IMG/VR virus record: IMGVR_UViG_3300044901_000083
Span: 3,740 to 67,739 of that record
Source of the DNA: a virus
Taxonomy: Duplodnaviria > Caudoviricetes
DNA: 64,000 nucleotides
Strand: one strand, 5' to 3'
A program made the position numbers and the translations under genes. Below, one piece after another: positions 31,846-32,460 of the stretch (positions are counted from its first letter, which is position 1; the number at the start of each line of letters is the position of its first letter). Under the pieces are notes generated by a model, which was given only the letters and a program-made list of their open reading frames with translations, searched no databases and had not been told where the DNA came from.

Positions 31846-32460
31846 GAGCTCTCACCATCACCGGCGCCGGAAACGGCATCGTCGGTCGGCCTTGCGGCCA
31901 CTTCTTCCCGCCAGTGATCTCCCTCGTGGGCATGCACCACGCCTGCGGGCACCGGTGATGGTCAAAGCTCTCATGACTGCGCCGACACCCCGCGTGGGGC
32001 CCGGCTGCACCCGGCTTCAGCTGTGCAGGCCTTCGGTCGGCGCAGTCATGAAAGCTGAGGGCTGGAGCCGCACTATTGCCCCAAGCAAGCCGCGGCCTCT
32101 CGATGTCCACCGCTGGCGACCCTGCTGGGCGTGCCTCCCAGTCTCGAATGGCCTTGCTCACCCTCACGACTGCGGACCGTCGTGCTTTCGTTGCCGTGAG
32201 GCTTTCGTCGCAAGGTCCAGATCCGCATGCGTGAGGGCCCGGTTTCCCGGGTCCACACGGCCGGTAACGTCTCCGGCGCGGGGTTTCACCGCTCGTGCAC
32301 CAGATTCACGGTCTCCGATCGCGACCCGCTGACAACGGAACGTCCCGATCTTCGCCCTCGATGCCTCTATCACGCCGGCGCCCGTCGCTCGCGGGCAGCA
32401 TCTGTGGCCGGACTTACGTTACCGCCGGATCGTCAGGCCCGGCGGCCTCGCGCGTTCTCT
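31846..32460 (-). ncRNA. Large structured ncRNA, ROOL-like core with 3' hairpin extension
   Basis: No credible ORF; GNRA hairpins and G-U wobble pairs only on minus strand; motif order recalls ROOL consensus (from memory, unverified). Confidence 0.65.

Follow-up and report, generated by a model that had tools for sequence, protein, structure and literature searches.

The minus strand of a 64,000-nucleotide (nt) stretch of phage DNA, referred to here as the window (positions 3,740 to 67,739 of the IMG/VR virus record IMGVR_UViG_3300044901_000083, which is 67.7 kb long and has a G+C content of 65-70%), very probably encodes a real, new modular RNA, as judged from the comparison of related sequences. 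Its core of ~300 nt (32160-32457) combines a 5' domain that is specific to a small clade of phages with two conserved modules, R1 and M2; less conserved hairpins follow. An earlier note had described the region 32060-32460 as a giant, GC-rich version of the phage RNA ROOL. The structured non-coding RNA (ncRNA) that it placed on the minus strand appears to be borne out by conserved helices with compensatory changes, the ROOL identity fails. Overall, we lean towards an uncatalogued modular ncRNA that is excised as a stable RNA and acts via the loop of R1 on a host factor.

Module R1 is a unit of ~45-55 nt, in which an ACG lies upstream of a 4-bp helix, P2, and of an adjoining 5-bp helix, P3. In the window the R1 core spans 32257-32312 on the minus strand, with the invariant ACG at 32296-32294, P2 formed by 32292-32289 and 32281-32278, and the directly adjacent P3 formed by 32277-32273 and 32264-32260 and capped by the loop AGACGUUA. 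The P3 loop consists of an invariant AGACGU and two further bases. A covariance model (CM) built from 43 sequences finds R1 once in the window, at 32257-32312, with 56.7 bits and E = 9e-12. True matches to this model score 42-73 bits (at least 54 in the scan of bacterial genomes), chance occurrences of the same 22-nt pattern at most 34. Across 45 distinct homologues, 98% of the alignment cells pair and five of the nine base pairs show double changes; none of 500 column shuffles reaches the observed value, and no shifted register approaches it. The homologues were collected partly by an exact pattern, so the invariance of the P3 loop looks inflated; matches found by BLAST or by the model only (phages P1, Tyrion and PHB04, and locus L015) retain the same loop. 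Two resemblances within R1 were rejected, namely an ops/RfaH-like GGCGGU string in P2, the positions of which covary as an RNA helix, and a guanidine-III-like string around P3, which had no Rfam match.

The second module, M2 (32160-32237, minus strand), forms a clamp in which 32237-32230 pair with 32168-32161 as the outer helix and 32226-32220 with 32178-32172 as the inner helix, separated by a conserved 3x3 internal loop, CAU / AGU. Together these make up a helix of ~20 bp around a variable insert, which is 41 nt long in the window and 41-90 nt across the copies; the outer strands are invariant (UCACG/CGUGA). In an alignment of 15 distinct copies, the window included, 95% of the cells pair and 28 cells carry double changes, compared to 10 expected and with none of 500 shuffles reaching the observed value. 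M2 is also found without R1, in nine other viral contigs. It lies between tRNA-Met and tRNA-Gly in locus L273, and it is present twice in tandem in L006 and L038. Many G-U pairs are seen on the sense strand, both in M2 and in a pseudoknot domain of a second clade described below. Since such pairs turn into A-C mismatches on the opposite strand, they point to RNA and not to duplex DNA as the conserved entity.

Hairpin P4 (32238-32251, minus strand), a 5-bp stem with a GAAA tetraloop, is variable or absent in the relatives; hairpins capped by UUCG or GCGA take its position in L101 and L122, and L006 has none. On the 3' side of M2, two long branched hairpins (31846-32056, minus strand) with closing helices of ~21 bp and ~15 bp form a self inverted repeat. 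They are unconserved in the relatives and possibly represent an insertion. Locus L101 lacks them, and the 3' strand of its M2 leads almost directly into the counterpart of a block at 31815-31855 (minus strand), which the two phages have in common. This block contains a hairpin (31839-31821) with a 6-bp stem and the loop CCUGGCC, and is 83% identical over 41 nt to L101:8749-8789, with the stem CUGCGG/CCGCAG replaced by CUGCAG/CUGCAG. Between the close relatives L006 and L038, RNA modules seem to have been swapped: L006:11148-11422 and L038:11158-11420 have near-identical flanks and a near-identical second M2 copy, and differ in P0, in the surroundings of R1 and in the first M2 insert. A third recurrent small hairpin, GUGAAUG followed by a 6-7-bp stem with the loop GGCUGA, accompanies R1 or M2 in different phages. 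It is located just after M2 in L269, L271 and L273, just after R1 in L109 and L114, and upstream of R1 in L172 and L085.

The relatives were obtained with the portal protein as an anchor, which retrieved 42 related loci; with the phosphatase encoded next to the RNA region loci without the RNA were retrieved, and two further neighbouring proteins of 531 and 61 amino acids (aa) yielded no useful loci. The window's own clade has five members, the window, L006, L038, L101 and L122, which have the same order of elements: hairpin P0, helix Pa enclosing hairpin Pi, a pseudoknot (PK), R1, an optional tetraloop hairpin and the long helix. In a table of the five phages the helices P0, Pa, Pi, PK, P2, P3 and M2 keep a constant order with differing sequences. 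P0 (32422-32445, minus strand) has a 7-bp stem and the 10-nt loop GCCUGACGAU, followed by UAACGUAAG. In all five members the sequence of its stem varies and the complementarity is kept, and the loop is conserved. A pattern search with the P0 loop gave chance matches only beyond the known clade. Helix Pa pairs 32411-32407 with 32379-32375, within a span of 32360-32411, and contains Pi (32396-32392 with 32384-32380); in the pseudoknot, positions 32402-32397 in the Pa loop pair with 32365-32360, ~30 nt downstream, all on the minus strand. For both Pa and PK, four different complementary pairs are found in the same order and with the same spacing in the five related phages. An analogous helix and pseudoknot are present upstream of R1 in a second, RecT-linked clade, where 97.7% of the cells are paired, 30 cells show double changes and none of 500 shuffles reaches this value.

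The RNA modules are located in an untranslated stretch (31740-32475, minus strand) between an open reading frame (ORF) of 61 aa (32476-32661, minus strand), which marks the 5' boundary, and the gene of a NinI-like metallophosphatase (30998-31717, minus strand; phrog_246 with 3e-67, and Pfam Metallophos), which marks the 3' boundary. The stretch hence exceeds the 400 nt originally flagged, extending from the stop of the 61-aa ORF (32476) to the phosphatase start (31717). In the flanking genes the GC content at the third codon position is 0.9-1.0 in one frame (~0.9 in the 61-aa ORF); from 32475 to ~31740 it is 0.55-0.80 in all frames, without periodicity, and this flat profile supports the earlier view that the region holds no credible ORF. 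The ORFs inside 31740-32475 have no Pfam or PHROG matches. From 33300 to 30900 the minus strand has neither a predicted sigma-70-type promoter nor a predicted intrinsic terminator, and the stretch is therefore probably co-transcribed with its neighbours. The 61-aa ORF is 76% identical at the nucleotide level in the relatives, with a 60-aa ORF present in L006 and L038. For the phosphatase, the longest ORF (30987-31736, minus strand) is in the wrong frame, with a third-position GC of 0.42; the true gene, which it overlaps, encodes 239 aa.

The upstream neighbour of the RNA region is a tRNA-Met (CAU) gene (32844-32920, minus strand; called by ARAGORN, 55.7 bits with the Rfam tRNA model), which lies 530 nt upstream. 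It is preceded in minus-strand order by a 58-aa ORF, the gene of a 531-aa protein with a zeta-toxin/kinase domain (33140-34735, minus strand) and the portal gene (34732-36474, minus strand); portal and other phage genes thus flank the RNA region. The island of tRNA and RNA is thereby enclosed by a kinase-domain protein and a phosphatase. The portal is 71% identical to that of the Bordetella phage PHB04, and the GC-rich phage is apparently proteobacterial, as the earlier note had supposed, and more specifically betaproteobacterial. Between tRNA-Met and the 61-aa ORF, a block of 93 nt (32687-32779, minus strand) shares 87% identity with L014:11229-11321, which belongs to a phage with a portal only 62% identical to that of the window, which suggests another conserved RNA element.

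To compare the RNA with catalogued families, the whole window was scanned with the 4227 models of Rfam 15, and tRNA was the sole match at the gathering score. With permissive filters, the 1.6 kb from 31400 to 33000 gave no ROOL, GOLLD, RNase P, ribozyme or riboswitch match at E<=10. The ROOL model RF03087 (574 positions, gathering cut-off 99.1 bits) had no match at E<=10 anywhere in the 67.7-kb record; the control genomes were likewise without a match, so the model was not seen firing. GOLLD, which was examined via the all-family scans alone, had no match at the gathering score or at E<=10. Over R1 and M2 in the window, in the P1 leader and in 34 related loci no Rfam match was obtained; the tRNA, tmRNA and 'anti-hemB' matches at these loci are all outside the two modules. 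A CRISPR-DR20 match on the plus strand (31855-31898) reached 28.7 bits, compared to a cut-off of 42 bits, and was taken as chance. Text searches of the literature found no description of the motif, and a search with the loop sequence returned primers alone.

The ROOL assignment had been based on the order of motifs, and all of the quoted strings are found at or beside the positions given for them on the minus strand: GUAAGUC (32417-32411), ACAGAUGCUGCC (32405-32394), the GUGAUAGAGG...GAUC string (32373-32347), CCGUGAAUCUGGUG (32311-32298), GUGAAA (32289-32284), GGAUCUGGACC (32224-32214) with GGUCC at 32178-32174, the GUCGUGAGGGUGAGCAAGGCCAUU string (32170-32147), and CCCGG-GAAA-CCGGG (32251-32238). 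GNRA-capped stems are present as described, together with a pseudoknot. The Rfam ROOL model does not support the order as one of ROOL. In ROOL a single RNA of ~580 nt is conserved throughout and contains multiple pseudoknots; here R1 (55 nt) and M2 (78 nt) are separate and one pseudoknot is supported. The phage or prophage location, often near tRNA genes, is the same. A single giant RNA is probably not what is encoded, as just ~135 nt (R1 and M2) are conserved beyond the closest clade, the modules are independent of each other, and L101 is without ~300 nt of the 3' part. Since most of the remaining 740 nt are unconserved even in the nearest relatives, the region is better described as a modular array. 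A very divergent, compact homologue of ROOL or GOLLD, hidden from the Rfam models by its G+C content and its reduction, would share the setting (phage, neighbouring tRNA, pseudoknot) and the similar motif order described in the earlier note. The lack of any match at E<=10 with permissive filters on the 1.6 kb, or of a ROOL match in the whole record, and a conserved core of ~135 nt in small separable modules, compared to a 574-position model, speak against it. Moreover, GOLLD has been reported by Rfam-based surveys from mycobacteria, which are rich in G+C, so a high G+C content by itself should not hide an RNA from models of this type. We regard this explanation as largely refuted and extremely improbable. 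The earlier note had also allowed that a transcript without a CM match would be a new RNA class; of this, the missing CM match was found and, on sequence grounds, points to a new class.

R1 was found in ~45 distinct phage or prophage sequences, once per genome, with a copy number of one confirmed in P1, PHB04, Tyrion and IFTN2. Its carriers include the Escherichia phages P1 and P7 and their relatives, the Bordetella phages vB_BaM-IFTN2, IFTN6 and vB_BbrM_PHB04, the last being a 94-kb relative of the window phage, the Enterobacter phages Tyrion and Arya, and prophage-like regions of Pseudomonas, Janthinobacterium, Herminiimonas and Rhodoferax. Overall, R1 and M2 are found in many phages of Beta- and Gammaproteobacteria, frequently within tRNA/tmRNA islands. 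The R1 model had no match in the complete genome of phage HK022. A pattern scan of metagenomes gave one match only, and a pattern scan of a genome collection mostly chance matches in G+C-rich Actinomycetota, with 7 of the 80 loci listed being true according to the model. Among 151 sampled Burkholderiales genomes just the centre genome matched; few candidates were scored per genome, so absence is not implied.

In many of these genomes R1 is close to genes of stable RNAs. It ends 2-4 nt before a same-strand tRNA in three phages (tRNA-Asn in P1, tRNA-Arg in IFTN2, tRNA-Tyr in L081), directly follows tRNA-Glu in L055, and is 115-235 nt away from a tRNA in L080, L101, L028, L015/L047 and L133. In L028 and PHB04 it adjoins permuted tmRNA genes. 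These two-piece tmRNAs of betaproteobacterial type, which lie beside tRNAs and R1 (L125:2946-3317, that is PHB04, MF663786 ~46061-46432, and L028:6676-7044), were both called by ARAGORN; the L028 copy scores 85-106 bits in Rfam, and the PHB04 record is unannotated there. At the 3' end of RNA islands the Rfam family 'anti-hemB' (RF02837) matches above its cut-off (L030:3460-3528 and L028:7211-7299). The L030 copy reads as a hairpin with an intrinsic terminator, and the family may be a phage-borne element that bears a terminator. In a Rhodoferax genome a tRNA with the anticodon UCA (L133:4721-4796, minus strand) lies ~190 nt downstream of R1; ARAGORN calls it tRNA-SeC, and it is possibly a suppressor-type tRNA.

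The short distance to tRNA 5' ends in three unrelated phages would also suit a catalytic RNA for tRNA maturation, either a self-cleaving ribozyme or a reduced RNase P-like RNA. The short strings AAGUCCGG, ACAGA, GGUGAAA and GAGCAAGGCCA had been taken by us to resemble conserved strings of RNase P RNA; this was rejected, as no model matches and Pa pairs locally. At E<=10 the models of RNase P and of hammerhead, twister, HDV-like and other ribozymes gave no match, the CCGG string has its partner locally, 30 nt away in Pa, whereas the P4 helix of RNase P is formed with a remote 3' strand, and many R1 copies have no nearby tRNA. We therefore give a catalytic role only a slight chance.

A second common setting of R1 is the recombination operon, where it is followed by genes of RecT/Bet-type annealases and then RecE-type exonucleases. 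In P1, R1 closes an unannotated leader of 465 nt in the C1-controlled ban operon, which extends from the terminator in the dicF-like region to tRNA-Asn. This leader corresponds to L128:2076-2540 (AF234173 68564-69028), and no promoter-like site is seen between the terminator and the tRNAs. The main rival explanation is that R1 is a cis-acting leader element that changes the production or the survival of the transcript. In one version it would be a processive antiterminator of the type of HK022 put or Bacillus EAR, with which RNA polymerase would get across long untranslated, Rho-sensitive stretches such as tRNA islands and antisense regions; in another it would stabilise the RNA downstream or direct its processing. 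R1 is always oriented as the downstream genes and lies inside operons, in many prophages 25-50 nt before RecT/Bet/RecE-type early genes and thus in a position comparable to nutL or putL. It begins ~20 nt past a near-consensus promoter in Tyrion and precedes ~1.5 kb of largely untranslated RNA of the ban operon in P1; in the window, ~1 kb of untranslated RNA is part of a long operon with no internal promoter. Furthermore, its two adjacent stem-loops recall put RNA. The put and nut sites are paired, however, and R1 is single in each genome; its absence from HK022 excludes homology to put, and the identity with put RNA was rejected. Terminator-like sites within 160 nt downstream of R1 are not enriched (7/83 compared to 17/357 control windows), and the sole strong terminator of the P1 leader lies upstream of R1. 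In phages of the PHB04 type, R1 has genes of stable RNAs as its neighbours and does not head an mRNA. Taken together, we consider a cis-acting leader unlikely, if the strongest of the alternatives.

The same leader position in many prophages, the pseudoknot and the highly conserved unpaired nucleotides would also be expected of a riboswitch, with a ligand-binding pseudoknotted aptamer controlling the downstream genes. The expression platform would be inconsistent, as terminators are not enriched and the element runs into the tRNA in P1, IFTN2 and L081. In addition, the downstream genes have no common metabolic theme, and the pseudoknot domain is clade-specific, with the universal part consisting of two small hairpins. 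A riboswitch thus appears very unlikely.

For the excised, modular ncRNA that we favour, the following steps are conceivable. The RNA region would be transcribed together with the flanking genes (portal, tRNA-Met, 61-aa ORF, phosphatase) and the RNA then be excised by RNA-processing enzymes of the host. Where R1 adjoins a tRNA, as in P1, IFTN2 and L081, RNase P would make the cut, and the repeated spacing of 2-6 nt to tRNA 5' ends suggests that it would set the 3' end of the R1-containing RNA there. Long clamp helices, of which M2 is one, may be cleaved by RNase III or an enzyme like it. In L030, an intrinsic terminator marks the end of the RNA region, ~250 nt past R1 and ahead of the next gene, which is in favour of this reading. 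Once released, the stable RNA would use the invariant loop of R1 to act on a conserved factor of the host, most likely with a role in tRNA biology or translation; that this loop and the ACG are invariant among very different phages speaks for a conserved partner in the host rather than a phage protein. That the RNA is processed, stable and acting in trans, and not purely a cis-acting leader, is a proposal to which we give somewhat less than even credence. More tentatively still, Proteobacteria may have their own counterpart of ROOL and GOLLD, of which R1 and M2 would be the conserved parts. It would be a new class of RNA from phage tRNA islands, set free by the enzymes with which the host processes tRNA and rRNA, and its R1 loop would capture a conserved host component, either of the tRNA or translation apparatus or of an anti-phage system directed at tRNAs; we consider this rather doubtful.

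Several observations weigh against this reading. Many R1 copies precede a start codon, often that of a RecT/Bet gene, by 25-50 nt, a position that suits a cis-acting leader no less well than a trans-acting RNA, and the proposed cleavage by RNase P and RNase III is deduced solely from geometry. An extended model of the RecT-linked clade, R2, matches the window on R1 only, which leaves common descent of the 5' domains unsupported; hence we regard the likeness as one of architecture and make no claim of homology. The nearest relatives (portal 80% identical) have flanking genes with 76-81% nucleotide identity to those of the window, and of the untranslated stretch only ~60-90 nt align, centred on 32317-32224; this core recurs in numerous unrelated viral contigs. 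Parts of the 740 nt, most of which are unconserved, may perhaps be spacer or inserted DNA. The fold energy of 416 nt is no better than that of shuffled sequence (z = -0.75), so that the signal above chance is the comparative evidence, i.e. conserved helices with compensatory changes, and not the fold energy. In favour of the reading, the minimum-energy fold independently recovers P0, P2, P3, P4 and M2.

In the extreme case, the stretch would be non-functional spacer or decayed coding DNA, with hairpins arising from the high G+C content and the conserved pieces being DNA sites for protein binding or recombination. A fold energy like that of shuffles, the lack of conservation over most of the 740 nt, and large insertions and deletions between relatives would be expected in that case. 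Compensatory double changes in R1, M2, Pa and PK would not, nor would the frequent G-U pairs, and R1 has been kept in an Enterobacter podovirus, in P1 and in phages of Bordetella and Pseudomonas. We accordingly assign little probability to a mere spacer.

Compared with known systems, the window RNA resembles ROOL and GOLLD in setting and not in descent. Both are phage RNAs that are often found near tRNA islands, and ROOL is encoded by phages and prophages, pseudoknotted, and without known protein partner or function (PMC12286853). The window RNA is likewise phage-borne and pseudoknotted and lies downstream of a phage tRNA-Met. It differs in that ROOL is a single RNA, conserved along all of its ~574 model positions, whereas the window has two independent modules of ~55 and ~78 nt; the hosts here are Proteobacteria, and there is no CM match at E<=10. 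GOLLD has universal and less conserved parts, tRNAs can sit inside it, and one studied example is located downstream of a Met-tRNA (PMC12286853). A conserved core with variable surroundings near a tRNA is also seen here, but GOLLD exceeds 800 nt, compared to a core of ~300 nt, its sequence and helices are unrelated, and no Rfam match links the two.

Other phage and bacterial RNAs are similar in single aspects. HK022 put consists of two stem-loops and EAR is a pseudoknotted intra-operon element, both being sense-oriented in phage early operons or other long operons. R1 occupies comparable operon positions and differs by its absence from HK022, its single copy, the lack of terminator association and the lack of sequence similarity. 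At RNase III processing sites, such as the T7 hairpins and the leader-trailer helices of rRNA, a long helix clamps an RNA within a polycistronic transcript. By analogy, M2, a helix of ~20 bp with a conserved internal loop, could clamp variable RNA in a polycistronic phage transcript; its strict conservation, 11 nt per strand, goes beyond what is usual for such sites, and we know of no sequence similarity to the T7 or rRNA hairpins. Species 1 and 2 of the T4 tRNA cluster are non-tRNA stable RNAs of ~140 nt that are cut from the same precursor as the tRNAs and occur in T4-like phages only. The window RNA may be analogous to these as a stable non-tRNA RNA within a phage tRNA cluster, with no sequence relation expected.

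GOLLD- and ROOL-type RNAs beside phage tRNA genes are a long-standing puzzle, being abundant and elaborately folded with no known job. Most of the known examples come from Firmicutes, from hosts that are difficult to manipulate genetically, or from metagenomes. R1 and M2 fall outside any Rfam family, are well supported by covariation and take up this genomic niche in Proteobacteria. As R1 is present as a single copy in P1, where it adjoins tRNA-Asn in the ban operon, and in cultured Bordetella and Enterobacter phages, its function is testable by standard E. coli genetics. Were it indeed a counterpart of ROOL and GOLLD, an RNA of this kind could be dissected in E. coli K-12 through the leader of the P1 ban operon.

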